Position numbers and translations under genes: made by a program | In this document: in pieces, positions 4,948-60,494 of the stretch | Layout of the letters: every line of letters begins with the position of its first letter | Position numbering within the stretch: position 1 is the stretch's first letter | From: an uncultured Candidatus Saccharibacteria bacterium | Lineage (GTDB): Bacteria > Patescibacteriota > Minisyncoccia > Phycocordibacterales > UBA9973 | Reading direction: 5' to 3' | Assembly (NCBI GenBank): GCA_964626965.1 | Contig: CAZVHB010000001.1 | Coordinates: forward strand, 1,818 to 65,817 | Length of the DNA: 64,000 bases | The notes under the pieces: generated by a model | What the model was told of the DNA's origin: nothing | Seen by the model: only the letters and a program-made list of their open reading frames with translations | Databases searched by the model: none

Positions 4948-5904
4948 ATGAAAAAGTTACTCAGTTCTTTCCCAAAAATCCTACTCATTGTAGTAGGTTT
5001 AATAAATTTTAATTACAGTGCATTTGCACAACAGCCCGCCAAGAAAAAAAATATCACGTATTCAGCCGAAGCCGAACTTGCGTACGCGCAAGTATGTGCA
5101 GATTTAAAGGCAGAAAAAGATATTTTTAATTGTAGTCCTACGCTATGGCTACAACAAATCTGTGACAATGCAGTTGAGCAAGGCTATCCGAAATCAACTC
5201 CCGGTCAAATGCTTGATGTTATTCTTGATCCGAAGCAAACTTCTTTGAAGTGGCTTACACCCGATCAAGTTATCAATAGTTATTTGATGAGCGGTGGTTT
5301 TACGGATTGCTTAGCAAAGGAGAATGGATGGTATGTATGTGTTGGAGATTGTATTTTATTTCGACTTGGGCCAACAAATTGTTTGAACCCATGTAAATCT
5401 AAAAATACTGGAACTGGTCGTTACCCTAAAAGAGAACAACCTATTCCTCCTGCACCGCCAATCACTGTTGGACCTGCAAAAGTAACAAACACCGACGTTG
5501 GACCAAATGTAACAGTTACCCAAGCACAAGCACCGCAAAATGTAGTTTCCAATAGCTATAATACATATAACTTTGGAAGTACAACAGTGTCTGCTGTACC
5601 TCAGTTGATGCCGGTTTACTGGCCTCAACAACAACAGGTCAATGTGTATCAGCAACAGGGAACTGTGGCTCCTCCGATTAGCAACCAACCTACGTGTCCT
5701 AATGGGCAACAAGGGTACTGGTACACCTATCCTGATGGACAACGCCAATGGCTTTGTCCTTCATCTGGCACAGGTATCGCCCCTGGAACAGCTCCTGGTA
5801 CTAACGGTATAGGAATCCATCCTGGAGCCCCTGTGAACACCGGTGGTGTCATTACGAATCCTGGAGCAGGCACAAATGGTATCGGCATCACTCCTGGTGG
5901 TTAA
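4948..5904 (+). CDS. Secreted protein with a Cys-containing N-terminal domain and a Pro/Gly/Thr-rich C-terminal repeat region
   Basis: Signal peptide ...SAFAQQ. C-terminus has GTAPGTNGIGIHPGAP/GAGTNGIGITPGG repeats. Confidence 0.7.
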   Translation: MKKLLSSFPKILLIVVGLINFNYSAFAQQPAKKKNITYSAEAELAYAQVCADLKAEKDIFNCSPTLWLQQICDNAVEQGYPKSTPGQMLDVILDPKQTSLKWLTPDQVINSYLMSGGFTDCLAKENGWYVCVGDCILFRLGPTNCLNPCKSKNTGTGRYPKREQPIPPAPPITVGPAKVTNTDVGPNVTVTQAQAPQNVVSNSYNTYNFGSTTVSAVPQLMPVYWPQQQQVNVYQQQGTVAPPISNQPTCPNGQQGYWYTYPDGQRQWLCPSSGTGIAPGTAPGTNGIGIHPGAPVNTGGVITNPGAGTNGIGITPGG

Positions 5905-5931
5905 TTAATTAAATTTATTAAAAAACAAGTG

Positions 5932-5970
5932 TGAGGAATTTTTGGCCTTGCCAAAAATTCCTCCCTTTTA
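5932..5970 (+). terminator. Rho-independent terminator
   Basis: gaggaatttttggc/gccaaaaattcctc stem followed by a T-rich tail. Confidence 0.6.
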
Positions 5971-6049
5971 TAAAAATCTTATTGTTTGTATAATCAATAA
6001 AATGAGGTTTTTTAGAAGAAATTTTCACACATAGTTCCGATCGAGGAGC

Positions 6050-6077
6050 TTGACATAAATTTATAAATTGATATAAT
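6050..6077 (+). promoter_or_regulatory. Sigma70 promoter TTGACA-16-TATAAT, 8 nt upstream of the ATG at 6086 (leaderless or near-leaderless)
   Basis: Exact consensus hexamers. Confidence 0.7.
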
Positions 6078-6085
6078 AGCTTTAT

Positions 6086-8959
6086 ATGAAAAACATATTT
6101 ACAAAAATTAGTTCAAAAGCATACATAGGCGCACTTGCGCTCTTTTTGGCTTTTGGTCTTACAAGCCAAGCATATGCTGGCGCAGTTGCATGGGCAGGTC
6201 CAACAGAGTTTGGTACTATCGCTAATGTTACCGGAACATCAATCGTCGAAAGTAGTCCTTATACACCATTTTCTTATGCAAATACATCTTCTGCGTCTGC
6301 AGGTGATAAAGTTGCGGTTATTGTGTATTTCCACAATAAAGGAAATGCTGCATCTCCAAACACATATATTAAAGTAAATAAATCAACCAACGGCTCTGCC
6401 TCTACGTTTACATTTACTGGTTCTGTGTCTGGTGGTGGAGCTTCAAAATCTGGCTCAACAACAGTGAACCTTTCTTCTAGTCAAACACTCACGTATATCC
6501 CAGGATCACTACGCGTTAGTAAAGACCGTGCTCCAGTAGGGTACTCAGTATCAAATGATACAGACGTTTTTTCAGGTGCTGGTCTTGATATTGGGATGGT
6601 ACAAGGAATGGATACTTGCGGAACAGACGCACTCTGTCACCAAGGTTCTGTTGCACTTGGATTTCAAGTAAGTTCAACTTCTACAACTCATCTTTGTTCA
6701 AATGGACAAGATGATGACGGAGATCTCCTTATCGATATGAATGACCCAGGATGTACTGACCCAACTGATGATAATGAATACAATCTTGTATCACCACTTG
6801 TGTGTACAATCAATTCTTTCACTGGATCACCTTTGACTGTTGCTTCTGGTGGATATACAAATCTTTCATGGAACACAACAAACTGTACAACTGTTACTGT
6901 TGATGGATTTACCTATCCTGTCGATGGTAGTGGAAATTTTGGCCCACTCTTTGTCGGTAAAACATACTATCTTGCTGCTTCAAACGGAACTAGTACTGAC
7001 TCAGAAACAGTCTATGTTGGTGTAAATACTGTTGCTTCAGCATGTACAATTGATACATACTATGCATCACCAACTACAGTAACTTCAGGTGGATATACAA
7101 CAATTTATTGGAATACATCAAACTGTACGACTGTTACTATCGATGGTATGCCTCAGTCAGTAGACGGAAGTAATTCTTTTGGTCCGATCTATTCTGGTAA
7201 AACATACAACATTGTTGCGTCAAACAGTACAAGTACTGATTCAGATAGTCTCTACGTTGGAACAAATTCTGTAAATAACTGTACGATTGATAATTTCTAC
7301 GCATCACCATCTACTGTTTCTTCAGGGAACTACACAACACTTCATTGGAATACATCAAACTGTGACCAAGTGACGATCGACGGTATTACTTATTATTCTG
7401 TTGATGGAAGTGGATCTTTTGGACCACTCTACAGTGGACGAAGTTACCAAATCCAAGCATGGAAAACTAGTCAATCTCCAGTTTCTCAAACAACATACGT
7501 ATCAGTTGATACATACTCTTCAAACAACTGTAGTATCGATACTTTTTATGCATCACCTACAACAGTAATCTCAGGTAGTACTACTCAACTCTTTTGGAAT
7601 ACATCAAACTGCGACCAGGTTACTGTTGATGGTATTAATTATGGTGTTGATGGAAGTGGTTATTTCGGCCCACTCTATAGTGGACGAAGTTACGTGCTCA
7701 ATGCGTGGAAAAATGGTCAAACTGTACGTACACAAACAGTCTATGTTGGTGTAAATTCTGTCAATAATTCATCTTACGCATGTAATGATGGGTATGATAA
7801 TGATGGTGACGGACGTGTAGACTATCCAAATGACGCTGGTTGTTACTCATCAACTGATAACGATGAATACAACTATGTTGCACCAGCTGTTTTGAATACT
7901 GTTGTGACAACACTCAACCCAAGTAATCTTACATCTTCTTCTGCACGTTTGAATGGATCTATCTTCAATGGTGGAAATAATGCAACTCAGTTTTATTTTG
8001 AATGGGGAACAGATACAAATTCTCTTCCAAACAAAACAAATTCACAAACAACCTTTTCAGATAATTCAGTAACGTACTTTGATACTGCATACAATCTTTC
8101 AACTGGTGTTACCTATTACTATCGTGCAGTTGCACAAAAAAGTAATGGAGTGGTCATCCGTGGCGATATTAGACAATTTCGCTTGATTGAAGTGGTAACT
8201 CCTGTATTTACAAATACAGTGACACGAGTAGTTACGGTGCCAGCTCCAGTAGTACAAGAGAGAGGAGTAGTTGTCGGACTTGGAACAAATCTTGTACAGC
8301 TTCGATATATTACGAATGATATCCTTAGTACAAATACTGGTGGTTTTGGAATCACTCAAACTGGTATCAATCAAAATGTAAACAATGGTGTACAAAATGT
8401 CTGTGTTGATGACAGTATTAAATTTGTTGTTGAATACAGAAATATCTCAACAATTACACTTAATAATGCAATCCTTCATATTGATATTCCAAAAGATGTC
8501 GACTTCCGAAGTTCATCAGCCGGAGTATTTAATAAAGCAGACAATACTATCACTATCAATGTAGGAACACTCACTCCTGGTCAATCAGGTCAAGTATCTT
8601 TCGACGGAATTGTTATGAGTAGTGCAGCAAATCGAGATCTTCTCGTTGTCCCAGCAACACTCTCATTTGAAAATCCAAACAATGGTGCTCGAGAAACAGC
8701 GATTGCGTACGGACTCGCAACGACTCAAAACTGTATTAAAAATGGGGGACTTGCCGGATTCGCATTCGGTTCAGGATTCTTTCCAGATACACTCTTTGGA
8801 TGGTTGCTCTTAATTCTCGTACTCCTCGCTCTGATTTACCTTCTTCGAAGAATGTTTATGGTGTATGGAATCGGACCAAGATCAAAGACCACAACCACAA
8901 CGACTACACAAAGACATTACGAGGATATGGATATTCCAACAGCGCCATACCAACACTAA
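6086..8959 (+). CDS. Large cell-surface protein (957 aa): signal peptide, 4 tandem ~80-aa repeats flanked by Asp-rich CxxGxDxDGDG motifs, a fibronectin-III-like domain, a DUF11-like domain and a C-terminal TM anchor
   Basis: Repeats CTIDxFYASPxTVxSGxYTxLxWNTSNC..VT.DG..Y.VDGSG.FGP.YSG. Also NATQFYFEWGTD (fn3-like), TPGQSGQVSFDGIV (DUF11-like) and a C-terminal GSGFFPDTLFGWLLLILVLLALIYLLRR. Confidence 0.75.
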   Translation: MKNIFTKISSKAYIGALALFLAFGLTSQAYAGAVAWAGPTEFGTIANVTGTSIVESSPYTPFSYANTSSASAGDKVAVIVYFHNKGNAASPNTYIKVNKSTNGSASTFTFTGSVSGGGASKSGSTTVNLSSSQTLTYIPGSLRVSKDRAPVGYSVSNDTDVFSGAGLDIGMVQGMDTCGTDALCHQGSVALGFQVSSTSTTHLCSNGQDDDGDLLIDMNDPGCTDPTDDNEYNLVSPLVCTINSFTGSPLTVASGGYTNLSWNTTNCTTVTVDGFTYPVDGSGNFGPLFVGKTYYLAASNGTSTDSETVYVGVNTVASACTIDTYYASPTTVTSGGYTTIYWNTSNCTTVTIDGMPQSVDGSNSFGPIYSGKTYNIVASNSTSTDSDSLYVGTNSVNNCTIDNFYASPSTVSSGNYTTLHWNTSNCDQVTIDGITYYSVDGSGSFGPLYSGRSYQIQAWKTSQSPVSQTTYVSVDTYSSNNCSIDTFYASPTTVISGSTTQLFWNTSNCDQVTVDGINYGVDGSGYFGPLYSGRSYVLNAWKNGQTVRTQTVYVGVNSVNNSSYACNDGYDNDGDGRVDYPNDAGCYSSTDNDEYNYVAPAVLNTVVTTLNPSNLTSSSARLNGSIFNGGNNATQFYFEWGTDTNSLPNKTNSQTTFSDNSVTYFDTAYNLSTGVTYYYRAVAQKSNGVVIRGDIRQFRLIEVVTPVFTNTVTRVVTVPAPVVQERGVVVGLGTNLVQLRYITNDILSTNTGGFGITQTGINQNVNNGVQNVCVDDSIKFVVEYRNISTITLNNAILHIDIPKDVDFRSSSAGVFNKADNTITINVGTLTPGQSGQVSFDGIVMSSAANRDLLVVPATLSFENPNNGARETAIAYGLATTQNCIKNGGLAGFAFGSGFFPDTLFGWLLLILVLLALIYLLRRMFMVYGIGPRSKTTTTTTTQRHYEDMDIPTAPYQH
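6803..7774 (+). repeat. Four tandem ~240-bp (79-83 aa) intragenic repeats
   Basis: Each repeat starts with a TGT (Cys) codon, at 6803, 7043, 7280 and 7529. Confidence 0.8.
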
Positions 8960-8989
8960 TCTGCGCGTATAAAATTTATCACACAAATG

Positions 8990-9025
8990 CACAAAAAACC
9001 GGAATTGCCTCCGGTTTTTTGTTTG
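8990..9025 (+). terminator. Rho-independent terminator
   Basis: aaccggaattgcctccggtt followed by ttttttg. Confidence 0.75.
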
Positions 9026-9062
9026 TCTATAAGTTTATTTGGAAAGCTGATACAATGAGCAT

Positions 9063-11459
9063 ATGCAGAAATCACCCTACACCGAAACCTACATTCTCCT
9101 CGATGCACATGCGATTATTCACCGTGCGTACCATGCGATTCCTGACTTTACGACAAAAAGTGGTCAGCCGACAGGAGCTCTCTTTGGACTCATGAGTATG
9201 CTCATTCGCATTATGACCGAGATCAAACCAGACTATATTATTGCATGCTATGATCTACCCGATAAAACATTTCGTCATATTGCCTACGATGCATACAAAG
9301 GCACTCGCGCAAAGACTGATGATATTCTTGTCGAGCAACTCATCAAATCTCGCAGTATCTTTGAACGGTGTAATATCCCTATTTACGATGCAAAAGGATA
9401 TGAAGCAGACGACGTACTCGGCACGCTCGCTGATATCTTGAAGAAAAATAAGAAAAATAAAGTGATCATTGCGTCAGGTGATATGGATACGATGCAGTTG
9501 ATTGATAGTGACCAAGTTGTTGTGTATACACTCAAGAAGGGGATCACTGATACTATTTTTTATGATGAAGAAGCTGTGGTAGAGCGGTATGGATTTTCGC
9601 CTTCTTCGATTCCAGACTATAAAGGATTACGTGGCGATACATCAGATAATATTATCGGTATCAAAGGTATTGGTGAAAAGACTGCAACAATTCTCATTCA
9701 GAAATACGGTACGATAGAACAGATGTATGTTGCGCTTAAAAAAGACGAAGCAAAATTTAAAAAAGACACAGGTCTCACGGACAGACTTGTGGGGCTTATT
9801 CGTGATAATGAAGAAGAAGCACTTTTTTCAAAAGAGCTCGCGACCATACAACGAGATTTACCAATTAATCTTACGCCTTCTGTTCTTCATCATACTATCT
9901 TTAATAAAGATGACGTGATTGCGCTCTGTGAAGAACTTGAATTCAAAAGCCTCATTCCACGTATCTCAAATTTGTATACGAATAATACAGAAACAATTTC
10001 AAACAAGAAGACAGTTTCAAAAGAGGATACAAGTGAAGTGGTCCCAATAGTAGAGGTAGATCCAAAGTATCTTCTTGCTGTATCACTCCTTGATTCAGAG
10101 AAAATCAAACCAACAGCGGAGGATATTTTGGCCTATAGTAACCAAGGTGATTTGGGTGAAGCATATGCAACTATAGAGAAAGAAATAGTAAAAAATAATC
10201 TCGAGTATGTGTGGAAGGAGATTGAAATACCTCTCTATGATATTGTCCAAGAAATGTCAGCTACTGGTATTACGATTGATATTCCATATTTTAAAAAAAT
10301 GAGTGAAAAACTCCACAGTGAACTCGACACATTAGAAAAAAGAATTTGGCAACTTGCTGGACAAGAGTTCAATATTAACTCACCAAAACAAATGGGAGAA
10401 ATATTATTTACAGTGCTCAATTTAGGTGAAGGGCAGAAGAAAATCAAAAAAACTGCAGGTGGGGCTATTACGACAAAAGAATCCGAGCTTGAAAAGTTGC
10501 GTGATGCTCATCCTATTATCTCGTATATCCTCGAATACCGAGAGATTCAGAAGCTTGTTTCAACATATATTGATAGTATTCCACTCTTAGTTGGTGCTGA
10601 TGGACGAATCCACTCTACTTTCAATCAACTTGGTGCGGCAACTGGACGTTTTTCTTCAAACGACCCAAACCTTCAGAATATTCCTATCAAAACAGAACGG
10701 GGAAGACTTATTCGTGGTGGTTTTGTTGCAAAGTCAGGTTATGTATTTTTGGGCTTTGACTATTCTCAGATTGAGCTACGTGTTGGCGCGCTTCTTTCAC
10801 AAGATCCGGACATGCTTGATACATTCATTCATGGTAAAGATATTCATACAACTGTGGCGAAAAAAGTTTTTAATGTTGAAGAGTCTGGTGTCACTCCTGA
10901 CATGCGTCGCAAAGCAAAAGTGATTAATTTTGGAATTATGTATGGTATGGGTGCGACAGCGCTCTCAGAAAATTTGGGTGTCCCACGAAAAGAAGCCCAG
11001 CTTTTTCTAGAAGAATATAAAAAACAATTTCCTGGGCTCAATATGTACCTTGAATCTATCGTAGAATTTGCAAAGACACACAAATATACGGAAACATTTT
11101 TTGGAAGAAAGAGAAATTTTTCAAAAATAAATTCAGTCATTCCATTTATTCGTGCAATGTATGAACGTATGGCAGTCAATGCACCAGTGCAGGGGACAGC
11201 TGCAGATATTATTAAGCTTGCGATGTTGCATTCACGTAAAATACTTGCGGAACACAAACTTGATATACATGCACAGCTCGTTTTGCAAGTGCATGATGAA
11301 ATTATTTTTGAAGTTGAAGAAAAATATCAACAAGAAGTAGCGGAACTCATCGAAAAGACGATGGAAAATATCATCCCGAAAAATATGAAAAAAGATCTTA
11401 TTTTTCCACCTTTTTCAACTTCTGTTGCGGTCGGGAAAACCTGGGCAGATTTGAAGTAA
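9063..11459 (+). CDS. polA: DNA polymerase I (5'-3' exonuclease plus polymerase; the 3'-5' exonuclease domain looks reduced)
   Basis: Motif A DYSQIELR, motif B RRKAKVINFGIMYG, motif C QVHDEIIFE. TACAAT-N6-ATG lies at the start. Confidence 0.9.
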   Translation: MQKSPYTETYILLDAHAIIHRAYHAIPDFTTKSGQPTGALFGLMSMLIRIMTEIKPDYIIACYDLPDKTFRHIAYDAYKGTRAKTDDILVEQLIKSRSIFERCNIPIYDAKGYEADDVLGTLADILKKNKKNKVIIASGDMDTMQLIDSDQVVVYTLKKGITDTIFYDEEAVVERYGFSPSSIPDYKGLRGDTSDNIIGIKGIGEKTATILIQKYGTIEQMYVALKKDEAKFKKDTGLTDRLVGLIRDNEEEALFSKELATIQRDLPINLTPSVLHHTIFNKDDVIALCEELEFKSLIPRISNLYTNNTETISNKKTVSKEDTSEVVPIVEVDPKYLLAVSLLDSEKIKPTAEDILAYSNQGDLGEAYATIEKEIVKNNLEYVWKEIEIPLYDIVQEMSATGITIDIPYFKKMSEKLHSELDTLEKRIWQLAGQEFNINSPKQMGEILFTVLNLGEGQKKIKKTAGGAITTKESELEKLRDAHPIISYILEYREIQKLVSTYIDSIPLLVGADGRIHSTFNQLGAATGRFSSNDPNLQNIPIKTERGRLIRGGFVAKSGYVFLGFDYSQIELRVGALLSQDPDMLDTFIHGKDIHTTVAKKVFNVEESGVTPDMRRKAKVINFGIMYGMGATALSENLGVPRKEAQLFLEEYKKQFPGLNMYLESIVEFAKTHKYTETFFGRKRNFSKINSVIPFIRAMYERMAVNAPVQGTAADIIKLAMLHSRKILAEHKLDIHAQLVLQVHDEIIFEVEEKYQQEVAELIEKTMENIIPKNMKKDLIFPPFSTSVAVGKTWADLK

Positions 11460-11486
11460 ATCCTTTGGACATTACATGATACTAGT

Positions 11487-11602
11487 GATATACCCCGACA
11501 CCAATCCTTATTTTTTTACCCTAGATTGAGGTTTTTATAAGTAAGGTGGTATGAATGTTATTTCGTTGTAAGTTGTAAAAAGATTGGTGTGGGGGTATAA
11601 TA
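11487..11602. repeat. Inverted pair of the GATTGGTGTSGGGGTATA motif (20 bp, 2 mismatches) flanking ~76 bp
   Basis: 11487-11506 gatataccccgacaccaatc versus 11583-11602 gattggtgtgggggtataat. The right arm precedes the 11625 gene; the left arm has no cognate gene. Confidence 0.6.
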
Positions 11603-11624
11603 TACATATATTTTTAATAAACAT

Positions 11625-12095
11625 ATGATTAAAATCAGTAAAAAACATCTTATTCACAGCATCCTCGGCCACTCGTACCTCGCTTTTGTGGTATTTTTTT
11701 GTGGTGCTATATTTTTTGACCAGATTATTCCTATCACCCGATTAGATACAGCGTATCTTCAATATATTGGTGCGGCGCTCGTACTCTTTGGGACAAGCCT
11801 TATTTGCTGGGCTCAAGTTGATTCTCAGAAATCACTCCATGAAAGACATCAAGAGAAACCAGGAGAACAAGCTTTTTTCCATGGTCCATACAAATTTATT
11901 CGTACTCCTACTCAAGTCGGACTCTTTTTTCTGTTTCTCGGACTCGGTCTTACTCTTGGTAATGTTTGGGTGATTATTTTTTCAGTTATTTCAATCATCG
12001 TCAATTTCACTATCTTTGTAAAACAACAAGAACATATTCTTGCTAAACGTTATGGAGAGAGTTACATTTCATATAAGACAAAAGTTCACTTTTAA
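11625..12095 (+). CDS. Membrane methyltransferase of the isoprenylcysteine carboxyl methyltransferase / phospholipid methyltransferase family
   Basis: GPYKFIRTPTQVG matches the RHP..G-type motif, and there is a C-terminal E...L...YGESYISYK. Four TM helices. Confidence 0.55.
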   Translation: MIKISKKHLIHSILGHSYLAFVVFFCGAIFFDQIIPITRLDTAYLQYIGAALVLFGTSLICWAQVDSQKSLHERHQEKPGEQAFFHGPYKFIRTPTQVGLFFLFLGLGLTLGNVWVIIFSVISIIVNFTIFVKQQEHILAKRYGESYISYKTKVHF

Positions 12096-12098
12096 TCT

Positions 12099-12794
12099 AT
12101 GATTCACGTCATTATTGCTCCGGACTATGATTTTTTTACTAAACAAAAGGAGTCTCTAAAAAAGAAGCTTTCTCTCTCGAACGAATACAATGTGGAAGAG
12201 GTAAGTGGTTGTCCTCTCGTACACGCTGATTTTAGTGTGGAAGGTTTTTTTGAACGACCACCATATCTTCTCGTATATAAATATCTTTTTTCTGAAATTA
12301 GAGAGAACCAGTATGAAGAGTACATCACTGACTTGGCTCAAACCAAACACACGGTTCTTTTGTATGAAAAAACAAACAGTAAAGAATTTACGCAATTCTT
12401 AAAAGACCACAGTATTACTCCAGTAGAAGTAAAGACGGTAGTTGAGAAAAAAGAAGTCACACCTTTTTCTTTTACCGATGCAGTGATTGCAAGAAATAAA
12501 AAAGATGCGTGGATTGAATTTATGGCACTTCGAAACAAACAGGTTGAAATGATGAGCATTACCTCGGGTCTTATTTGGGCGATGAAGAGTTTACTCCTTG
12601 TTCTTACTCAAAAAGATGTCTCGAATACTGGGCTTAATCCGTATGTGTATAGTAAAATGAGTAAAAAGGTGAGTGTCTGGAAAGTATCTGAAGCACAGGC
12701 TTTTCTTCGAAGCTTACTGTACTTGAGTCTTGAAGAGCAATTCGATGAAGAAGCTCAGAGTATCAAATTAGAACAGTTGTTGTTTCAGTTGTAA
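12099..12794 (+). CDS. Hypothetical protein (possibly a divergent DNA polymerase III delta-like subunit)
   Basis: 3-nt gap after the upstream gene. No firm motif. The delta-subunit idea rests only on size and context. Confidence 0.3.
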   Translation: MIHVIIAPDYDFFTKQKESLKKKLSLSNEYNVEEVSGCPLVHADFSVEGFFERPPYLLVYKYLFSEIRENQYEEYITDLAQTKHTVLLYEKTNSKEFTQFLKDHSITPVEVKTVVEKKEVTPFSFTDAVIARNKKDAWIEFMALRNKQVEMMSITSGLIWAMKSLLLVLTQKDVSNTGLNPYVYSKMSKKVSVWKVSEAQAFLRSLLYLSLEEQFDEEAQSIKLEQLLFQL

Positions 12795-13013
12795 ATTCAC
12801 TGTCGACTTTTCCACAGAAACTATTTGCACTTGTTGTTTTTTTTAAAATATTGCTATACTAGAGAGAGTTCTTCTTTATTAGTAAAGAACTAAAGGTCAT
12901 TATTAAAAAAATAAGTGTACGATACGTTTCTGCCTACTAGAGAATGTCTTGGCTATAGAGAAGGTGTTTCCTAGTATACAATACATACGTACACAAAAAC
13001 AAATCATATATAT

Positions 13014-13487
13014 ATGAAAAAATCTCAAAAAGGTTTTACACTCATCGAACTTTTGATTGTTATCGCAATCATCGGTGTACTCGCAGCTGTTCTTATTCCT
13101 AACTTGCTCGCAGCTCGTAACAAAGGAGTAGACGCAGCTATTAAAGCTAACCTTGCTGCTACAAAATCTCAAGCAACATTGTTCTACGAAACATCACAAG
13201 TATTTACTGGTGTGTGTGCAACTGGATCTTCAACAGCTATCGGTGATATGGTTCTCAGTGCAGCACAAAAACTCTCTGGAGCTAACACTGTAACTGCTGC
13301 TACATGGGCGTACTCTTCAACTGGTGCGGCTAACTCTGCTGTGTGTCATGATAACGCTACAGCATGGGCAGCGATGGTATCTCTCAAGAACCCATCAACT
13401 ACATCTGGTGGATGGTGTGTTGACTCAACTGGTGCTACAAAAGAAACAGCTACTGCACTCGCAGCTGGTATTGCTGTTTGTCCATAA
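13014..13487 (+). CDS. Type IV pilin (major pilin paralog 1)
   Basis: Class III signal MKKSQKG/FTLIELLIVIAIIGVLAAV with a C-terminal Cys-Cys disulfide loop. Confidence 0.9.
   Translation: MKKSQKGFTLIELLIVIAIIGVLAAVLIPNLLAARNKGVDAAIKANLAATKSQATLFYETSQVFTGVCATGSSTAIGDMVLSAAQKLSGANTVTAATWAYSSTGAANSAVCHDNATAWAAMVSLKNPSTTSGGWCVDSTGATKETATALAAGIAVCP
13028..13158 (+). repeat. 131-bp segment identical to 13640-13770 (conserved 5' part of two pilin genes)
   Basis: Exact nucleotide identity across the prepilin N-terminal helix coding region. Confidence 0.9.
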
Positions 13488-13505
13488 GGAATTTATATTC
13501 TTTAC

Positions 13506-13537
13506 AAAAAAAACACCCAATCGGGTGTTTTTTTGTG
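13506..13537 (+). terminator. Rho-independent terminator
   Basis: aaaaaaaacaccc-aatc-gggtgttttttt. Confidence 0.8.
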
Positions 13538-13582
13538 TAAAAGGAGCTTGTGCTTTAAAAAAGCAAGATGTATACTGTTCTT

Positions 13583-14098
13583 ATGAAGATTTATATAAAA
13601 CATAAAGAAAAATTCGCGAGGGAAAGTATTATAAATAGTAAAGGTTTTACACTCATCGAACTTTTGATTGTTATCGCAATCATCGGTGTACTCGCAGCTG
13701 TTCTTATTCCTAACTTGCTCGCAGCTCGTAACAAAGGAGTAGACGCAGCTATTAAAGCTAACCTTGCTGGTATACGTTCAGAAGATATTTTATATTATGA
13801 AAATAACAACTCTTCTTTTTTAAACATCTGTACTACGTCAGTTACCGGTCTCGCTGACCAACTTGATAGTGCCGCAAAAAAGCTCTCTGGTTCTAATACT
13901 GTTGGTGGTTCAGCTCAAGCTTTTACCTACTCTGCAACTGGTGGTACTGGTTCTGCTGTGTGTCATGACTCTGCTACGGGTTGGGCTGCGGTTGTGTCGC
14001 TCAAGAACCCATCAACTGCATCTAGTGGATGGTGTATTGATTCCGTGGGTGTTTCAAAAGAAGTTACTACACTCGGAGCTAATATACGTGCTTGTTAA
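13583..14098 (+). CDS. Type IV pilin (paralog 2)
   Basis: Same N-terminus as paralog 1, variable middle, conserved C-terminal CHD...W..VSLKNPST...GWC. TGTATACT-N6-ATG at 13583. Confidence 0.85.
   Translation: MKIYIKHKEKFARESIINSKGFTLIELLIVIAIIGVLAAVLIPNLLAARNKGVDAAIKANLAGIRSEDILYYENNNSSFLNICTTSVTGLADQLDSAAKKLSGSNTVGGSAQAFTYSATGGTGSAVCHDSATGWAAVVSLKNPSTASSGWCIDSVGVSKEVTTLGANIRAC
13640..13770 (+). repeat. Second copy of the 131-bp identical pilin 5' segment
   Basis: Identical to 13028-13158. Confidence 0.9.
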
Positions 14099-14109
14099 TC
14101 AATTATTTT

Positions 14110-14156
14110 CCTCACTACAAAAAAACACCCGATTGGGTGTTTTTTTGTAGTGAGGA
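14110..14156 (+). terminator. Rho-independent terminator (extended stem)
   Basis: cctcactacaaaaaaacacccgattgggtgtttttttgtagtgagg. The core hairpin is the reverse complement of the one at 13506. Confidence 0.8.
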
Positions 14157-14223
14157 AACACGCTATGTGAATATCTTCTGTTTACTTCTTTCTTTTTTAA
14201 AAGTATCTGGGTATACTATACGT

Positions 14224-14700
14224 ATGAAAAAAATATATAAATCTCAAAAAGGTTTTACACTCATCGAACTTTTGATTGTTATTGCAATTATTAGTGTTAT
14301 TGCCTCTGTGCTTATTCCAAACGTCATGGCTGCGCGAGACAAAGGAACAACCGCTGCGCAAAGAGCCGAAGTAAAAACAGTACAAACAGAAGCAGTTGTT
14401 TTATGGGAAGCTAATAGTGGTAATCTTACCACTGTGTGTACTAACAGTACTGGGGCTCCTCGTACAGCACTCTTGAGCGCCCTGAAAAAGGGCTATCCAA
14501 ATGGTCAAATTGGAATTTTGGCGAACTCCATAGCATCGAGTTCTGGTAACGGTGCTGGTGTGTGCCACAGTACGGCATCTGCATACGGGGCAGAAATACC
14601 TCTTAAGTCTGGTGGATTTTTGTGTATGGATTCTACTGGTTTAGTGGTAGAATCTCTGACGACAAAAATTGGAACAGTGAATGATACATCTTGTTTATAA
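14224..14700 (+). CDS. Type IV pilin (paralog 3, divergent)
   Basis: MKKIYKSQKG/FTLIELLIVIAIISVIASV. GGTATACT-N6-ATG. Confidence 0.85.
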   Translation: MKKIYKSQKGFTLIELLIVIAIISVIASVLIPNVMAARDKGTTAAQRAEVKTVQTEAVVLWEANSGNLTTVCTNSTGAPRTALLSALKKGYPNGQIGILANSIASSSGNGAGVCHSTASAYGAEIPLKSGGFLCMDSTGLVVESLTTKIGTVNDTSCL

Positions 14701-14730
14701 TTTGTTTCTAAAATACAAAGGTTATATATT

Positions 14731-14768
14731 ACAAACCCAAGCAAACTAGTTTGCTTGGGTTTGTTTGT
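14731..14768 (+). terminator. Rho-independent terminator
   Basis: aaacccaagcaaactagtttgcttgggttt followed by gtttg. Confidence 0.75.
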
Positions 14769-14795
14769 TCCTTGCTATAGTAGTATACTGTGTAC

Positions 14796-15623
14796 ATGTT
14801 TGAATTATATGGAATCTTCGTTTTTATTTTAGGAATGATTATCGGTTCATTTTTAAATGTTGTCATTTATCGGTTCAATACAGGACGGGGACTTGGCGGA
14901 CGATCATTTTGTTTTACCTGTAGACGGACACTGTCTTGGCACGAACTTGTACCGATCGTCAGCTTTGTTAATCAGAAAGGGCGCTGTAAAGGTTGTGCTT
15001 CAAAAATCTCTTGGCAGTATCCACTCGTTGAAGCTATCACCGGCCTGGTATTTGTTTCGCTCTTTATAAAATTTTTTCCAACACTTGATCTGACGCTTTC
15101 CGGTATTTGGCCAAGTTTGTTTTACCTTATTTTCTACACGTATATATTTTGCCTCCTTATTGTCATTTCAGTGTATGACTATCATCATCAGATTATTCCC
15201 AATAAACTTGTTTGGCTATTTAACATCCTCGCATTTTTAAGCCTCTTTTTGTTTGTGGGTGTTTCAGGTAGTGCTGTATACAGTATTCATCTTCCAACAC
15301 TTATGTCTATTGTGGCGGGGCCACTTATTGCGTTACCGTTTTTCTTTCTGTGGATGATTACCAAAGGGCGGGGTATGGGATTTGGTGACGTAAAGCTCGC
15401 ACTCGGTATTGGCTGGCTTCTTGGACTTTTTGCAGGACTTGCGACAGTTATTGTCTCTTTTTGGATTGGAGGATTTTGTGCGCTGATTGTACTCTTTCTT
15501 AAGAAAAATAAATATACACTCAAGAGTCATATTGCATTCGGTCCATTTCTTTGTATCGCTACGTTCCTTGTTTTTTTATTTAATGTTACAATTATTGATA
15601 TATTGCTACGGTTTCACTTTTAA
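14796..15623 (+). CDS. pilD: Prepilin peptidase (A24 family)
   Basis: GSFLNVVIYR, a CxxC...CxxC zinc knuckle and the catalytic GFGDVKL. TATACT-N6-ATG at 14796 (the ORF track starts at a GTG at 14790). Confidence 0.9.
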   Translation: MFELYGIFVFILGMIIGSFLNVVIYRFNTGRGLGGRSFCFTCRRTLSWHELVPIVSFVNQKGRCKGCASKISWQYPLVEAITGLVFVSLFIKFFPTLDLTLSGIWPSLFYLIFYTYIFCLLIVISVYDYHHQIIPNKLVWLFNILAFLSLFLFVGVSGSAVYSIHLPTLMSIVAGPLIALPFFFLWMITKGRGMGFGDVKLALGIGWLLGLFAGLATVIVSFWIGGFCALIVLFLKKNKYTLKSHIAFGPFLCIATFLVFLFNVTIIDILLRFHF

Positions 15624-15631
15624 TACACTCA

Positions 15632-16372
15632 ATGGAAAATAGATTATCACAATTACAAAATAGATTAGCTTGTAAACAGAGCGTTAAAAAAAGCGGAGCT
15701 TTTTTTAACGCTGGTTTTACAGTTATCGAAATGGTGACAGTGATTGCTATTTTTACAATACTTCTCGGAATCACTATGGCCAACTTTGACCTTTTTAAAA
15801 AGACGACTGATTTTAATCTCTCCGCTCAAGAGGTAGCATTTTTTATCAAGAGTCAACAACAAAATGCTATGGCTGGAAGATTTCCAGAAATTGATCCGTA
15901 TGTAAAAAATTATCCACCCACATCATGGCGCCCTTCATATGGACTCTATTTTAGCGTAGCCAACTCAGATAGAGTGTTACAGTTTTATGATAGTGATAAT
16001 GACTTCCTCATGACTGCGCCGTCAGGAAACACTTCGTGCGCAAATGACCCAGAGTATGAATGTATGAAAGAGATTATTTTTGACAAGATGACACTTGTGA
16101 GTATCTGTGATATGGATCCAAGTGGGTGTATTTCACGTAGTTCAGTTTCTGTTGTGTTTAAGCGTCCATTTCCTGATGCTCGTATTAATGCAGACTATAC
16201 TCCTTTTGATGTGTATGATTGTGTTGTAAATATGATATGTAATGCTACTAGTGTACCTACCCCAGTAGCAAACACTATAGAATTACGTTTTGAAACACCT
16301 GGTGTTACTGGTGCCAATATTGTCTCTATAAATCCACTTGGTGTTTTGACTGTTAGAAGAAGTAGTATATAA
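15632..16372 (+). CDS. Minor pilin / pseudopilin (FimT/GspH-like)
   Basis: Prepilin signal ...NAG/FTVIEMVTVIAIFTILLGI. Confidence 0.7.
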   Translation: MENRLSQLQNRLACKQSVKKSGAFFNAGFTVIEMVTVIAIFTILLGITMANFDLFKKTTDFNLSAQEVAFFIKSQQQNAMAGRFPEIDPYVKNYPPTSWRPSYGLYFSVANSDRVLQFYDSDNDFLMTAPSGNTSCANDPEYECMKEIIFDKMTLVSICDMDPSGCISRSSVSVVFKRPFPDARINADYTPFDVYDCVVNMICNATSVPTPVANTIELRFETPGVTGANIVSINPLGVLTVRRSSI

Positions 16373-16375
16373 CAC

Positions 16376-17065
16376 ATGATACACAAAATAGAGAATACAA
16401 AAAAATATAATCAAAATTTCATGGCCGGGTTCACACTCATTGAGCTTCTGGTTGCAACGTCGATATTTTTGATGACGATCACCGTTGGTATTACATCACT
16501 TCTTATGATGCATCGGACACATCACATTACTCAGTATAAAAAAGAGCAGTTGGATGCACTTCACGCGGTAATGGAAGACATGGTGCGAAATATTCGTGTG
16601 GGAACAAAAATCAGATGTGATATCACTGGTGCGTATAGTGGTACTGTGCTTGATCCTTTCACTGGTGCAACTGAAATAAGAACCCCTCTGTCGTGTTTTA
16701 ATAATTACACCACAGATCAACCTCAGAGTAATTCAATTGCTTTTGAAGGGATTGATGGGGATCCCTTAGATGATTTGGATCAAATTTCATATTATATTGA
16801 GTATGATGCTATTCTTGATAAGCGTGTCATATATAAGGCACACGATGTCGATTTTTATAATGATTTCACTAAATCAATCCGTGTCTCTCCTGATTCTGTA
16901 GATATCGATTTTGATAAATCTGGCTTCACTGTCATTCATGCTGAAGATTCTGACTTAAAACAACCACTCGTGTTGATTCGTTTGGTTGGTACGGTGACGT
17001 ACCAAAACGATAGTACTCCATTTTCTCTTCAAACAGCCGTGATGCAAAGAAATCCAAAACTATAA
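16376..17065 (+). CDS. Minor pilin (PilW/GspJ-like)
   Basis: ...FMAG/FTLIELLVATSIFLM. Confidence 0.7.
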   Translation: MIHKIENTKKYNQNFMAGFTLIELLVATSIFLMTITVGITSLLMMHRTHHITQYKKEQLDALHAVMEDMVRNIRVGTKIRCDITGAYSGTVLDPFTGATEIRTPLSCFNNYTTDQPQSNSIAFEGIDGDPLDDLDQISYYIEYDAILDKRVIYKAHDVDFYNDFTKSIRVSPDSVDIDFDKSGFTVIHAEDSDLKQPLVLIRLVGTVTYQNDSTPFSLQTAVMQRNPKL

Positions 17066-17068
17066 TAT

Positions 17069-17680
17069 ATGCAATATACACATATTACAAAAAAATACTT
17101 GCCCAGCACTAAATTAATGTTCTCTAAATATAGAAAATTTAGTACTGGATTCACCCTAGTGGAAACTCTCGTAGGTATTTTTATCTTTCTTTTAGCGTAT
17201 ATGGCACTTGCAAGTGTTAATGGTAGTTCTCTTCAAGATATTAGTATCACAAGCAGAAAACTTACTGCGGAGTATCTTGCGGAAGAGGGGATTGAATACG
17301 TAAAGTATTTTCAGAAATCATACGATAATGATCCGACACCAAAGGCATCATTTCTTGGTGTGACTGATCCAATGCCTTGTACGAGCTCACCTTCTGCTGT
17401 TGGGTGTGATTTTTATCTTAATCCTGGATCTCAAGATGTTACTGTGGATACTTACACAGGGCCTTTGAACCAATACCCGTATGGTTTTCTTGTACCAAGT
17501 TCTGTGGGTAGTGGTTATTCGGGTTTGACTACTGTCTCTGGTTATGAAAGGCATATTTATATAGATGATATTACTCAAAATGCGCTAGAGAGTCAGACAG
17601 TAAAAGTCACCTCCGAAGTAACCTATCTTCCAAGCCAGCCACCTGTGGTGGTTACCGCAATAATTCATTTCAATTTTTAA
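17069..17680 (+). CDS. Minor pilin (PilV/GspI-like)
   Basis: ...FSTG/FTLVETLVGIFIFLLAY. Confidence 0.7.
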   Translation: MQYTHITKKYLPSTKLMFSKYRKFSTGFTLVETLVGIFIFLLAYMALASVNGSSLQDISITSRKLTAEYLAEEGIEYVKYFQKSYDNDPTPKASFLGVTDPMPCTSSPSAVGCDFYLNPGSQDVTVDTYTGPLNQYPYGFLVPSSVGSGYSGLTTVSGYERHIYIDDITQNALESQTVKVTSEVTYLPSQPPVVVTAIIHFNF

Positions 17681-17681
17681 T

Positions 17682-18380
17682 ATGACACACCTTTCCTATA
17701 CAAAAAAACAAGACGGATTTATCATACTTTTCTCTGTACTCATCACAGCGATTATTCTCTCTATCACTCTCGGTGTTGCTAATGTTGCATTTCGGCAGAG
17801 AATCTTTACTCAACAAGTGACTCAGTCTACGAAAGCATTCTATGCAGCAGAAACAGCACTTGAGTGCCTCGTGGCGCTCGACGCACGGGGGGATTTTGGT
17901 CAAGATCCGTACCCGACAAGTATGCCGACAGATGTGAATGTGTATTGTAATGGTATTACAGCACCAGCAACACCAAATGTTTCAAACTCTCCTATTGTTG
18001 GGACTGGACCTTACTGTGCAGATGAAGATCCTATGACATCCCCGACATATTGTCCTGGAGGAGGTCTTGGAGTAGGAAGTACTGTGTATGAATTTGATCC
18101 GGTCAACTTCTCTCCAAGTACTTTTATAGAGGTGTCTGATACGTCAGGTGCACTTACTGGTTGTGCTCGTGCCAGAGTAACTAAATATTATGATACCGGA
18201 TTGAGTAATTTAACTGAAAGATATAAACACGTAATTCAAGTATGGGGGTATCAAGTAGACTGTGCCACTCTTGAGGCTCAGTTGACTTTTGCCCTCTCGA
18301 ATCCTTCTAGCCCTCTTGGATTTGGCCCGACAAACAACATTGTAGAGCGAAGTCTTACATACACCTACGAATCAGAATAG
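17682..18380 (+). CDS. PilX-like minor pilin
   Basis: QDG/FIILFSVLITAIIL... and FYAAETALE resemble the PilX N-terminal domain. Confidence 0.55.
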   Translation: MTHLSYTKKQDGFIILFSVLITAIILSITLGVANVAFRQRIFTQQVTQSTKAFYAAETALECLVALDARGDFGQDPYPTSMPTDVNVYCNGITAPATPNVSNSPIVGTGPYCADEDPMTSPTYCPGGGLGVGSTVYEFDPVNFSPSTFIEVSDTSGALTGCARARVTKYYDTGLSNLTERYKHVIQVWGYQVDCATLEAQLTFALSNPSSPLGFGPTNNIVERSLTYTYESE

Positions 18381-20408
<2,028 letters not shown>

Positions 20409-20409
20409 T

Positions 20410-20450
20410 TAATAGGGGCGGAAAACCGTAGGTTTTCCGCCCCTATTTTG
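20410..20450 (+). terminator. Rho-independent terminator
   Basis: aataggggcggaaaacc-gta-ggttttccgcccctatt followed by ttg. Confidence 0.8.
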
Positions 20451-20459
20451 AAAAGCATA

Positions 20460-20475
20460 GGTGTGGGGGTATACT
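20460..20475 (+). promoter_or_regulatory. GGTGTGGGGGTATACT motif, 6 nt upstream of the ATG at 20482
   Basis: Identical 16-mer to the one at recG. Confidence 0.5.
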
Positions 20476-20481
20476 TCACAC

Positions 20482-23481
20482 ATGAACACAAAAGAGTACC
20501 AAGAAGGTCTTGAAAAGCTTAATAGGGAGCAAAGATTAGCGGTTGAGTCTACTGAAGGACCGGTGATGGTTATTGCTGGTCCAGGAACAGGGAAGACACA
20601 AGTCCTCACGCTTCGAATCGCGCATATTTTAAGTGAAGGTCTCTCAGAAGCGTCTGGAATACTCTGTTTGACATTTACTCGCTCTGGTGTGTCTGCAATG
20701 CAAGCACGACTTGAAAAGTATATTGGTGTGACTTCTCGAGATGTACGAATCACCACGTTCCATAGTTTTGCAATTGATTTAGTTGAAAAACATTATGAGC
20801 TATTGGACTTTGAGAGCACACCGAAACTTCTTGAAGAAACAGAAGCAATTTTTTTACTTGATGAATTACTCGAGTCACATGCATGGGAGTATCTCACACC
20901 AAGGACTGATAAAACAAAATATTTTCGTGATTTGACGAATCTTATTTCATTTTTAAAACGAGAACGTATTACACCAACTGATCTCAAAGTTGAGATTGAA
21001 GGAGAAATCAAGACACTGATGGCTGACCCAGAAAATATTTCTTCTCGGGGTGCAACAAAAGGGCAACTTAAAAAAGAAACAGAAAAAAGAATCGATAGCT
21101 TGAATAGAACCAGTGAAATTGTAACTTTTTATACTGAGTATGAAAAACTCAAGAAAGAAAATAATTTTATGGACTACAATGATGTACTTGAGTATGCCGT
21201 AACACTCGTATCTGAATATGAAGATGTGAGATCTCTTGTTCAAGAAAGTTATTTATATGTGCTTGTTGATGAACATCAAGATTCAAACAATGTCCAGAAT
21301 AGTTTTTTGAAAGCTGTGTGGGCGGACAAAGATAATCCAGTTGAGAAGCCAAATATTTTTGTAGTGGGGGACGATCGCCAGCTTATTTATGGATTTTCTG
21401 GTGCGAATATAGATTATTTTACGGATTTTAAAACAAGTTTTGGAGGGTCGACTCGTATTGTGTTAGTTGAAAACTATCGTTCAACAAAACCTATTTTGGC
21501 TTTAGCTGACGCTATCTTACAAAGTACGCTCGCAACAGAAGCACTTTCGAGTAATAAAGAAGGGGGTGATAAAGTGTGTTTGTCTGAGTTTGAATATAAT
21601 CGTGACGAGCTCATTGGCGCAGGGTTGTATTTTAAAAAATTAATCGATTCTGGGGTACACCCAAAAAAATGTGCATTACTCTTGCCAAAAAATAGACATG
21701 TGAAAAATGCAACAACACTCTTTCGGGGTATGGGGCTTCCTGTTGTGTCTGAGATGAATGTATCTTTGCTTGATCTCCCTAAAGCCGAGAGTCTTATGGG
21801 GGTGTTGCAGTTTATTGCAGACCCAACAAATCCTTTGCTTTTAAGTGAATTGATACTTGATGAGACAAGTGCCATTCCACCATTGTTTGCTCATACGTTT
21901 TTGAAAGGATTTAAAAAAATAGACGAGCTTTCTGTGGACGCAATGATTCGACTTGGTCATGCTGATGGATTATTTGGTAATGAAAATCCGATTGCAGTGT
22001 TTGGAATGAAGCTCAACACTTGGATTGATACACTGACGTACGAACCCTTAACACACATCGTAAGTACTATTGGTAATGAATTACTTATTGAGCAGGCGTC
22101 CGATCATGATGACTTACTTGAATCAATTGAAATTGTTCGTACCTATATTCACAGCGCAACACTCTGGGAAGAGAAAAATAAGAATGCGACACTTCCAGGT
22201 TTTATTGAATATTTTAAACGGCTTAAACTATACGGAAATCAGGTTGCTGTTGCGCGCCTTGATAGTACAGAGGGGATTGCAATTAATACATTTCATAAAT
22301 CAAAAGGATTGGAATATGAATATGTGTGGATTGGTCATGTGAACGAAGAGATTTTGATGAGTGAAAAAAATACACCATTTACGCTTCCAGAAAAAATAAA
22401 AGAGAAAGTAAATGAGCGAAATGAGCTTACAACAAAACGAGAACTCTACGTTGCGGTGACACGCGCTGAGCGTTTTTGTACGATAAGTTATGGACTCCAT
22501 AAAGATGATGGAGTGGAGTTGAGTCTCGCGCATAGTATGAGTGACTTGGATCAAAATCATTTTATTCACACGACGAGTGTGCAGAACGAAGAATATCTCC
22601 TCTCTGAAAACCCAAAACTCTACGCATTAAAACCAGCAGTATTAGAAAATACTGAACTTACTCCACAAATACAAGCATTCGTAAAAGACCGTTTTGCTGA
22701 GACGAAAATATCTGTTTCTATGCTCAATAATTTTTTTGAATGTCCTTGGAAATGGTATTTTAGAAATTTCCTTCGTCTTCCAGAAACAAAAAGTGTTTCA
22801 CTCGCTCTTGGGTCTGTTGTGCACGGTGTGATTGAATATATTTTAAAAGCTGAAACACTACCGAGTCAGACACAGATACAAAAACAAATTACCTATCAAT
22901 TAGAAAAAGAAAAAATCACTAATATCAAAGATGCTACCCGTCTCGCAAAAGATGCAGAGTCCGCTATTATTCACTGGGTTGATACGTACTATACATCTCT
23001 TGCAAAAGACCACGTGTCTGAAAGAAATATTGCGTATAAAGATAAGCAATTTCCAAACCTGATGATGTATGGAAAAATTGATTTGACTGAAAGATATCCA
23101 GATGGAAGTATCGTGGTGACCGATTTTAAAACAGGTACCAGTAAGACGAGTGGTGTGATAGAAAAAATAACCGAAGAGGGAAGACTCTCGTCACTTTTGC
23201 GTCAATTGGCGATGTACTCATATTTAATCTTGGGTGCTGAAGGCGTAGAAGTGAGTGAATCTCGGCTACTCTTTCTTGAAGAAGATAAAGAAAATAAAAA
23301 TGCATTGTATAAAACACACGTAGAGAGAGACATGATAGATCTGCTTGTTAAAGATATCAAAGATTATCAAGATTTATTGACCAGTGGTGAATGGGTAACA
23401 CGACCTTGTACCGCAAAGTCCTATGGTTCGGGTTCTGAATGTGAATCGTGTGCACGGATTAATAAAATACTGAGTAAATAA
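20482..23481 (+). CDS. UvrD/PcrA-type superfamily-1 helicase fused to a C-terminal PD-(D/E)xK (RecB/Cas4-like) nuclease with a 4-Cys cluster (AddA/AdnB-like)
   Basis: AGPGTGKTQVL (Walker A), DEHQDSN, VVGDDRQLIYGFSGA. The C-terminus has CPWKWY...DGSIVVTDFKTG...RPC...SECESC. Confidence 0.8.
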   Translation: MNTKEYQEGLEKLNREQRLAVESTEGPVMVIAGPGTGKTQVLTLRIAHILSEGLSEASGILCLTFTRSGVSAMQARLEKYIGVTSRDVRITTFHSFAIDLVEKHYELLDFESTPKLLEETEAIFLLDELLESHAWEYLTPRTDKTKYFRDLTNLISFLKRERITPTDLKVEIEGEIKTLMADPENISSRGATKGQLKKETEKRIDSLNRTSEIVTFYTEYEKLKKENNFMDYNDVLEYAVTLVSEYEDVRSLVQESYLYVLVDEHQDSNNVQNSFLKAVWADKDNPVEKPNIFVVGDDRQLIYGFSGANIDYFTDFKTSFGGSTRIVLVENYRSTKPILALADAILQSTLATEALSSNKEGGDKVCLSEFEYNRDELIGAGLYFKKLIDSGVHPKKCALLLPKNRHVKNATTLFRGMGLPVVSEMNVSLLDLPKAESLMGVLQFIADPTNPLLLSELILDETSAIPPLFAHTFLKGFKKIDELSVDAMIRLGHADGLFGNENPIAVFGMKLNTWIDTLTYEPLTHIVSTIGNELLIEQASDHDDLLESIEIVRTYIHSATLWEEKNKNATLPGFIEYFKRLKLYGNQVAVARLDSTEGIAINTFHKSKGLEYEYVWIGHVNEEILMSEKNTPFTLPEKIKEKVNERNELTTKRELYVAVTRAERFCTISYGLHKDDGVELSLAHSMSDLDQNHFIHTTSVQNEEYLLSENPKLYALKPAVLENTELTPQIQAFVKDRFAETKISVSMLNNFFECPWKWYFRNFLRLPETKSVSLALGSVVHGVIEYILKAETLPSQTQIQKQITYQLEKEKITNIKDATRLAKDAESAIIHWVDTYYTSLAKDHVSERNIAYKDKQFPNLMMYGKIDLTERYPDGSIVVTDFKTGTSKTSGVIEKITEEGRLSSLLRQLAMYSYLILGAEGVEVSESRLLFLEEDKENKNALYKTHVERDMIDLLVKDIKDYQDLLTSGEWVTRPCTAKSYGSGSECESCARINKILSK

Positions 23482-34467: not shown

Positions 34468-34564
34468 TTTGTTTGTTCTTAATCATGTAAGTGAGACCTC
34501 CTGTGTTTTTAGCACGGAGGTCTTTTAATTTACGTTTTATTTTCTTTTTTGCTATACTTCACCT

Positions 34565-60452: not shown

Positions 60453-60494
60453 GGGGGGGGGGGGGGGGGGGGCGGGGGGGGGGGGTGGGTGGGG
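60453..60494 (+). repeat. 42-nt poly-G tract (interrupted by c, t, t) followed by A13
   Basis: gcgggggggggggggggggggcggggggggggggtgggtgggg aataaaaaaaaaaaaa, in a genome of ~35% GC. Confidence 0.9.

Follow-up and report, generated by a model that had tools for sequence, protein, structure and literature searches.

We analysed a 64-kb stretch of patescibacterial DNA, referred to here as the window, in which three type IV pilin genes (pilins 1, 2 and 3) lie in tandem and in which the first two contain an exact repeat of 130 nt, the block, which covers just the prepilin cleavage site and the assembly helix. We hypothesize that what we see is one end of a type IV pilus locus, the end with the pilin genes, from a Nomurabacteria-like member of the Patescibacteria, and that the repeat is the recent footprint of gene conversion or recombination between two old paralogs rather than a product of selection; to this explanation, taken as a whole, we assign a probability of about 0.7. 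We stress that the locus is an ordinary pilin gene array and not a demonstrated switching system, and that it reveals no new mechanism.

All three tandem pilin genes proposed in an earlier reading of this DNA, made from its letters alone (the sequence-only reading), are present (Table 1), although the second has an alternative in-frame start at ATG 13568. They repeat with a period of about 610 nt (608-612 nt) and lie 5' of a gene for the prepilin peptidase PilD and of four minor pilins. Each of the three encodes a prepilin motif, a basic leader with Lys-Gly at its end and then FTLIELLIVIAII (that is, KG and FTLIELL on the two sides of the cleavage site), and each matches the Pfam family N_methyl (PF07963), with scores of 41.2, 34.7 and 39.5 bits for pilins 1, 2 and 3, respectively, against a cut-off of 21.2 bits. 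Together these features make up a class III signal: a short basic leader ending in Gly, Phe at position +1, Glu at position +5 and a hydrophobic helix of some 20 residues. An AlphaFold2 model of pilin 1, made with 28 family sequences (mean pLDDT 94.5), predicts the lollipop fold of a pilin, with a long N-terminal helix (residues 10-61, 52 residues), a further short helix within the alpha-beta loop, and an antiparallel sheet of four strands. Solved pilins were also retrieved by sequence search, and a Foldseek search returned nothing significant. The content of Gly, Ala, Ser and Thr (GAST) in the three mature pilins (Table 1) compares with 23-24% for PolA and LigA, and lies within or above the range of 38-47% quoted for the major pilins of Pseudomonas aeruginosa (PMC11623550). 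This composition, the small size of the proteins and their position at the head of the locus are indirect hints that they may be major subunits, and the gene next 3' of pilin 3 encodes a dedicated prepilin peptidase. By their motifs, and in pilin 1 by its predicted fold as well, the three are type IV pilins, referred to here as major-type.

The relatedness of the three proteins differs sharply along their length. From Gly-1 onwards, 42 residues are the same in pilins 1 and 2, and the heads of these two are about 55-56% identical. Pilin 3 matches them at 29 of 43 residues (about 70% of nucleotides) in the alpha-1 region and is about 32-35% identical to them in the globular part. Four cysteines are kept in all three pilins, which bears out the conserved C-terminal cysteines noted earlier. 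At the level of DNA, the repeat shared by pilins 1 and 2 begins two codons 5' of the cleavage site. It had been described as a block of 131 nt; the repeat is indeed exact, and its length is 130 nt. On its 5' side the two genes cannot be aligned, either in the leader peptide or in the promoter, and on its 3' side identity drops immediately to 47% over 31 codons, in agreement with the divergent centre that had been described.

Synonymous sites provide the first line of evidence for gene conversion. Among codons that specify the same amino acid in pilins 1 and 2, none of 42 differs within the block, whereas 20 of 58 differ downstream (Fisher p = 4.6e-6). Over the same 43 codons, the adjacent major-pilin pairs of relatives (loci L001-L015) show good conservation of the protein and usually differ in 30-70% of such codons (13% in L004); between pilin 3 and pilins 1 and 2, the count is 13 of 29. 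Because the relatives' pairs and pilin 3 do differ synonymously, selection at the protein level does not yield the DNA identity of the block. Selection at the nucleotide level, for example on mRNA structure, was considered as its cause and rejected: both pilin 3 and the ortholog described next carry many synonymous changes in this region.

The second line of evidence comes from the closest relative, L001, a Logan contig of 1.9 kb that has the same gene order and a PilD 81% identical to that of the window. Between its ortholog of pilin 2, P0002, and the block there are 10 differences in 127 sites, and pilins 1 and 2 agree at every one of the ten. In the globular part, however, pilin 2 and P0002 are sisters in 199 of 200 bootstrap replicates, and pilins 1 and 2 in 0 of 200. 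Over a single tract with sharp boundaries the paralogs thus resemble each other more than the orthologs do, and elsewhere far less, which is the classical signature of non-allelic gene conversion.

P0002 itself appears to be a mosaic. Informative sites in alignment columns 128-213 are pilin-2-like by 33 to 1; beyond them 31 are pilin-1-like and 28 pilin-2-like, with the last dozen mostly pilin-1-like (maximum chi-square test, permutation p = 2e-4). We read this signal as recombination in the course of evolution and not inside a population, and differences in rate could contribute to it; given that there is just one relative, the exchange is not assignable to a lineage. The third-position pilins of the two loci (14224-14700 in the window, 700-1218 in L001) are 38% identical in their globular part, though PilD is 81% identical, a difference that would fit either very fast evolution of this head or its replacement.

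The arrangement and the homogenisation are both found elsewhere. Two or three tandem major-type pilin genes precede the minor pilins in L002, L003, L004, L007, L009, L010, L013 and L015. Across the 75 fetched loci with at least two pilin genes, exact 5' runs of at least 60 nt occur in 7 of 234 neighbouring pilin pairs. At 127 nt, counted in register from the Gly codon, the run in the window is the longest of the seven. The other six, of 68-125 nt, belong to Acidobacteriota (L055, L047, L042), Patescibacteria (L066, L004) and Ruminococcus (L026, 4019/5058). In the Ruminococcus pair the synonymous differences are 1 of 41 versus 30 of 58, the heads are 52% identical and the genes are in inverted orientation. 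Judging from these comparisons, homogenisation of the helix-coding end of adjacent pilin genes is recurrent and extends across phyla.

Several points weigh against our explanation. The sole close relative is the 1.9-kb contig, which is too little to fix the timing and direction of the conversion, and no ortholog of pilin 1 is available. The window derives from a metagenome assembly, and the sole independent assembly ends at 13049 and does not verify the block: Logan contig L145 (SRR12712864) corresponds to positions 5400-13049 of the window, with 100% identity over 7650 nt, and says nothing on the block because it ends at the first 31-mer common to pilins 1 and 3, where the de Bruijn graph breaks. 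Exact look-ups of pilin 1, pilin 3 and an identical database entry, P0001, returned no encoding contig, and scans of the GTDB species genomes and the JGI metagenomes returned no relative nearer than 57% and 55%, respectively. The assembly ATPase (PilB) and the platform protein (PilC) were not found among the large open reading frames (ORFs) of the window. Finally, the expression of the three pilins, their co-assembly and their function are inferred.

We envisage the following course of events. An old array would have held paralogs with one common assembly helix, processed by one peptidase and bearing different heads. The three pilins have in common the N-terminal alpha-1 helix, which PilD cleaves and which packs in the filament core, and they differ in the surface-exposed alpha-beta loop and the beta-sheet head. 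Recombination of the RecA type would occasionally copy the helix-coding segment from one paralog to another, and the resulting tract would be bounded by loss of homology, through divergence of the leader on the 5' side and of the head on the 3' side, so as to span the region in which the genes could still pair. In this way every paralog would probably remain usable by one machine, which would allow mixed or alternative filaments with different surfaces. All three would be expressed, with a leadered mRNA for pilin 1 and leaderless ones for pilins 2 and 3. As a by-product, the 130-nt direct repeat could now and then yield deletions or hybrid genes; that it has a dedicated role in switching seems to us unlikely.

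The sequence-only reading went further and saw in the array a substrate for pilin variation. In its strongest form, this would be a working system in which the 5' block and the 3' region serve as anchors, the centre is swapped, or copies are fused or deleted, and the surface of the pilus is thereby changed. Recombination between the paralogs has indeed happened, as the identity of the block, the 10 of 127 differences in P0002, the bootstraps and the mosaic testify; variation that is ongoing or programmed is possible and not demonstrated. A perfect direct repeat of 130 nt is long enough for RecA-type recombination, and the mosaic of P0002 and the fast evolution of heads, as seen at the pilin 3 position, would suit such a system. 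The mosaic signal is evolutionary, however, and not within-population, and the layout of two or three pilins is standard in related genomes.

The 3' side is where the anchor model fails. A second similar stretch does exist (13311-13445 versus 13928-14062), but to call it near-identical was an overstatement: its DNA is 79% identical, the longest exact runs are 18 and 17 nt, and 6 of 25 codons differ synonymously. It encodes the motif CHD..GWAA.VSLK.P.T..GWCVDSTG..KE....C, which is conserved over 28 aligned family members from many genomes, with Cys, Trp, Ala-Ala, Leu-Lys and Asp-Ser among its invariant residues. To judge from this alignment, the motif is a structural signature of the whole family and not a recombination anchor. 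The proposed variable cassette between two identity blocks does not hold, and the conserved DNA on both sides that is characteristic of the Neisseria type is absent here, with an exact match over 130 nt on the 5' side and a diverged 3' side.

Other hallmarks of a switching system are likewise missing. There are no silent, truncated or promoterless cassettes at the locus: each of the three genes has its start, leader, full helix, stop and its own terminator, and pilins 2 and 3 also have the promoter-start motif described below. No G-quadruplex (G4) motif was found near the locus (11500-15500), and a poly-G tract at 60453-60494 accounts for the single G4 pattern of the window. The neighbouring genes showed neither a recombinase nor an invertase domain, and all the pilin genes lie on the + strand, so that invertase switching of the Moraxella type finds no counterpart. 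Among 5.8 billion protein clusters we found no hybrid alleles, and pilins 1 and 2 each stand alone at 90% identity, the nearest entries being 70-77% identical; this negative is weak, because the organism appears in just one or two samples. On balance we consider a working variation system improbable. We also doubt that the 130-nt repeat is kept identical through use, with recombination swapping or fusing expression modules (the leadered promoter and short leader peptide of pilin 1 versus the leaderless promoter and long leader peptide of pilin 2) or deleting or re-duplicating a pilin unit. If this were true, a minimal-genome episymbiont would possess a simple, RecA-based means of changing its surface, with consequences for host binding and the avoidance of phages.

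Alternatively, a recent tandem duplication could have been followed by replacement of the 3' two-thirds of one copy with foreign DNA, acquired for instance by DNA uptake, the crossover lying at the end of the helix region. In raw identity over the globular part, pilins of other genomes (60-64%) come nearer to pilin 1 than pilin 2 does (56%, rank 14), and the regular unit period and the likeness of the terminators are as a duplication would leave them. Such a duplication would, however, have to start exactly at the cleavage site, because leader peptide and promoter, which lie upstream of the block, are dissimilar in the two genes, and pilin 1 still groups with pilin 2 and P0002 in 149 of 200 bootstrap replicates. 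In L001, moreover, the pilin-2-type gene is preceded by a terminator that resembles terminator 1 of the window (it matches its 3' half), which suggests that the array is older. We therefore regard a recent duplication as an unlikely origin of the block.

That metagenome assembly fused two slightly differing 5' regions into one sequence is highly improbable, for although the window is a metagenome-assembled contig, the 130-nt repeat is near common maximum k-mer sizes and the poly-G tract hints at sequencing artefacts elsewhere in the window, assemblers break or misjoin at repeats and do not rewrite one paralog into another, the unique flanks on both sides join in frame to give two intact pilins, long exact 5' runs also occur in independent assemblies from other phyla, and the independent Logan contig is 100% identical over its 7650 nt, up to the first shared 31-mer.

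We now turn to the signals from which the pilin genes would be expressed. The motif TATACT-N6-ATG, which had been reported at each pilin, is present at pilin 2 (ATG 13583) and pilin 3 (ATG 14224), while pilin 1 has AATCAT-N6-ATG in its place. It also precedes pilD (ATG 14796), and in the window as a whole it occurs 7 times against 0.71 expected, each time at an ORF start (2386-2400 on the - strand, 2511-2525, 13571-13585, 14212-14226, 14784-14798, 20470-20484 and 34553-34567). A convincing Shine-Dalgarno sequence was found at none of the 50 ORF starts examined, and a -10-like hexamer at exactly -12 to -7 at 13 of them. With a -10 box so near to the ATG, transcription would start at or beside the start codon and give a leaderless mRNA. 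Pilin 2, pilin 3 and pilD thus look like independent leaderless transcription units, in a genome that, from these start regions, appears to do without Shine-Dalgarno sequences and to use leaderless mRNAs widely. The leader of pilin 1, by contrast, is A-rich and untranslated, like those of other non-leaderless genes of this genome. The spacing of TATACT favours ATG 13583 as the start of pilin 2, with a leader peptide of 21 residues. A scan with sigma-70 and terminator consensus sequences missed the real signals of this genome.

Two further observations concern these regions. An extended promoter-like motif, GGGGTATA(C/A)T, often inside GGTGTGGGGGTATACT, was found 4 times against 0.14 expected (2395-2404 on the - strand, 2507-2516, 11592-11601 and 20466-20475), with three of the four at leaderless-type starts. 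Relatives contain long-leader pilins, often in second position, with an internal pseudo cleavage motif (for example MKNFKKGFTHQNFRNKISGG before FTLIELL), as if the leader had been duplicated (L004 4651, L005 4019, L009 4566, L010 3403 and 4576); the leader of pilin 2 in the window is also long.

Each pilin gene is followed by a strong hairpin and T-run, as had been stated, with folding energies of -20.3, -39.8 and -24.1 kcal/mol and z-scores of -4.8, -10.4 and -4.6 for pilins 1, 2 and 3, respectively. Terminators 1 and 2 had been described as the same hairpin in opposite orientation. They do match at 30 of 30 positions as an inverted repeat, against 28 of 30 as a direct repeat, but the difference consists in the two outer bases of the 4-nt loop (AATC versus GATT). 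The orientation carries little weight, since the stems are palindromic and two transitions or a flip of the loop give the same outcome. An invertible segment around pilin 2, flanked by a perfect 30-nt inverted repeat, was considered and rejected: a terminator stem that is a palindrome is bound to score as a direct and as an inverted repeat alike. Terminator 1, with an A-run at one end and a T-run at the opposite end, could act bidirectionally. No Rfam regulatory RNA family was found in 12000-15500, where just sub-threshold matches occurred at the terminator hairpins.

Table 1. Features of the pilin locus, in coordinates of the window.
Feature	Position	Strand	Description
Pilin 1 upstream region	12795-13013	+	A-rich leader without Shine-Dalgarno sequence; candidate -10 boxes TGCTATACT (12852-12860) and TATACA (~12976)
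Pilin 1	13014-13487	+	157 aa; leader MKKSQKG; mature protein 150 aa, 49% GAST, 4 Cys
Block, copy 1 (130 nt)	13029-13158	+	Leader Lys-2/Gly-1 through mature residue 42; hydrophobic alpha-1 assembly helix
Terminator hairpin 1	13507-13536	+	A7CACCC-AATC-GGGTGT7
TATACT -10 box of pilin 2	13571-13576	+	6 nt 5' of ATG 13583; leaderless-type promoter
Pilin 2	13583-14098	+	21-aa leader MKIYIKHKEKFARESIINSKG from ATG 13583; mature protein 150 aa, 43% GAST, 4 Cys
Block, copy 2 (130 nt)	13640-13769	+	Exact repeat of copy 1
Terminator hairpin 2	14107-14158	+	24-bp perfect stem, loop GATT, -39.8 kcal/mol
TATACT -10 box of pilin 3	14212-14217	+	6 nt 5' of ATG 14224; leaderless-type promoter
Pilin 3	14224-14700	+	158 aa; leader MKKIYKSQKG; 43% GAST, same 4 Cys
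Terminator hairpin 3	14731-14764	+	17-nt perfectly complementary arms; folded as 15 pairs with a 4-nt loop
Prepilin peptidase PilD	14796-15623	+	A24_N_bact (E 2e-28) and Peptidase_A24 (E 1e-11); own TATACT-N6-ATG (14784-14798)
Four minor-pilin-like genes	15632-16372, 16376-17065, 17069-17680, 17682-18380	+	Weak N_methyl and PilX_N matches; GFT(L/V)(I/V)E motifs

The window has a G+C content of 37.7%, and its best matches are Nomurabacteria and Paceibacteria-type Patescibacteria. Around the pilin cluster (9063-12794 and 18384-23481) lie genes for PolA, a methyltransferase, an NAD-dependent ligase (LigA) and a UvrD/PD-(D/E)XK helicase-nuclease, with RecG at 232-2388. Surroundings of this kind fit the proposed role of the pili in DNA uptake, and may also be a coincidence. 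The intergenic tract at 60453-60494 consists of 42 nt of near-pure poly-G followed by an A-run, and is probably an artefact of two-colour sequencing or assembly, or a misjoin.

The locus offers a clean example of a general rule: in neighbouring pilin genes, recombination homogenises the 5' third that codes for the helix, and the exposed heads meanwhile diverge quickly. Homogenisation of the helix would allow several surfaces to remain compatible with one assembly machine. Diversification of the pilin repertoire bears on host range, because type IV pili are the main known attachment tool of the Patescibacteria, and probably serve in DNA uptake as well. In practical terms, the locus is useful for annotation and for the choice of loci for read-level tests.

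Among known systems, heteropolymeric type IV pili are made by Streptococcus sanguinis from its major pilin proteins PilE1 and PilE2 (PilA1-3 in strain CGMH010) (PMC6497953, PMC10628169, PMC11121087). Like the window, S. sanguinis has two to three full-length major-pilin paralogs in one pil locus, in a bacterium without an outer membrane; the paralogs have the same N-terminal helix, with differences concentrated in the alpha-beta loop, they are served by one PilD, and their leader peptides are longer than the classical type IVa ones. The S. sanguinis major pilin genes are, we presume, adjacent in tandem, and in the window we find at least two complete tandem major-pilin genes with a common alpha-1N helix. 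The two systems differ in that co-assembly is proven by pull-down and cryo-electron microscopy in S. sanguinis and is putative in the window, and in that the S. sanguinis paralogs are far closer (PilA1 and PilA3 are 94% identical) than the heads in the window, at 55%. To our knowledge, no exact, sharp-edged conversion tract has been described in the S. sanguinis pilins.

Patescibacteria rely on type IV pili, and a second comparison is with the Saccharibacterium TM7x, whose pili serve in host binding and twitching (PMC11623550). TM7x and the window both have small, GAST-rich major pilins together with several minor pilins. TM7x, however, has two separate systems at different loci with one major pilin each, whereas the window has three major-type pilins in one array.

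For concerted evolution of paralogs by gene conversion, the tufA and tufB genes of Salmonella provide a precedent (PMC5485169). There, as in the window, a defined tract, which ends where homology ends, is more similar between the paralogs of one genome than between orthologs of different genomes. Whole genes are homogenised in tufA and tufB, whereas in the window this is confined to the helix-coding third, and the head of the surface protein is divergent.

The two classical systems of pilin variation resemble the window in part. In Neisseria, one expressed gene, pilE, is accompanied by many promoterless, 5'-truncated silent copies (pilS); a G4 lies upstream of pilE and conserved DNA flanks the mini-cassettes. 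Both loci involve non-reciprocal recombination of paralogs, a conserved 5' helix region and a variable head with a cysteine loop. Unlike the Neisseria copies, those of the window are complete and have their own signals, conserved DNA is found on the 5' side alone, and there is no G4 near the locus. In Moraxella bovis and M. lacunata (tfpQ/tfpI), pilin inversion by Piv requires inverted segments and a site-specific invertase. Moraxella and the window are alike in joining alternative heads to one conserved 5' helix-coding region; unlike those of Moraxella, the window genes are all in direct orientation and have no recombinase nearby.

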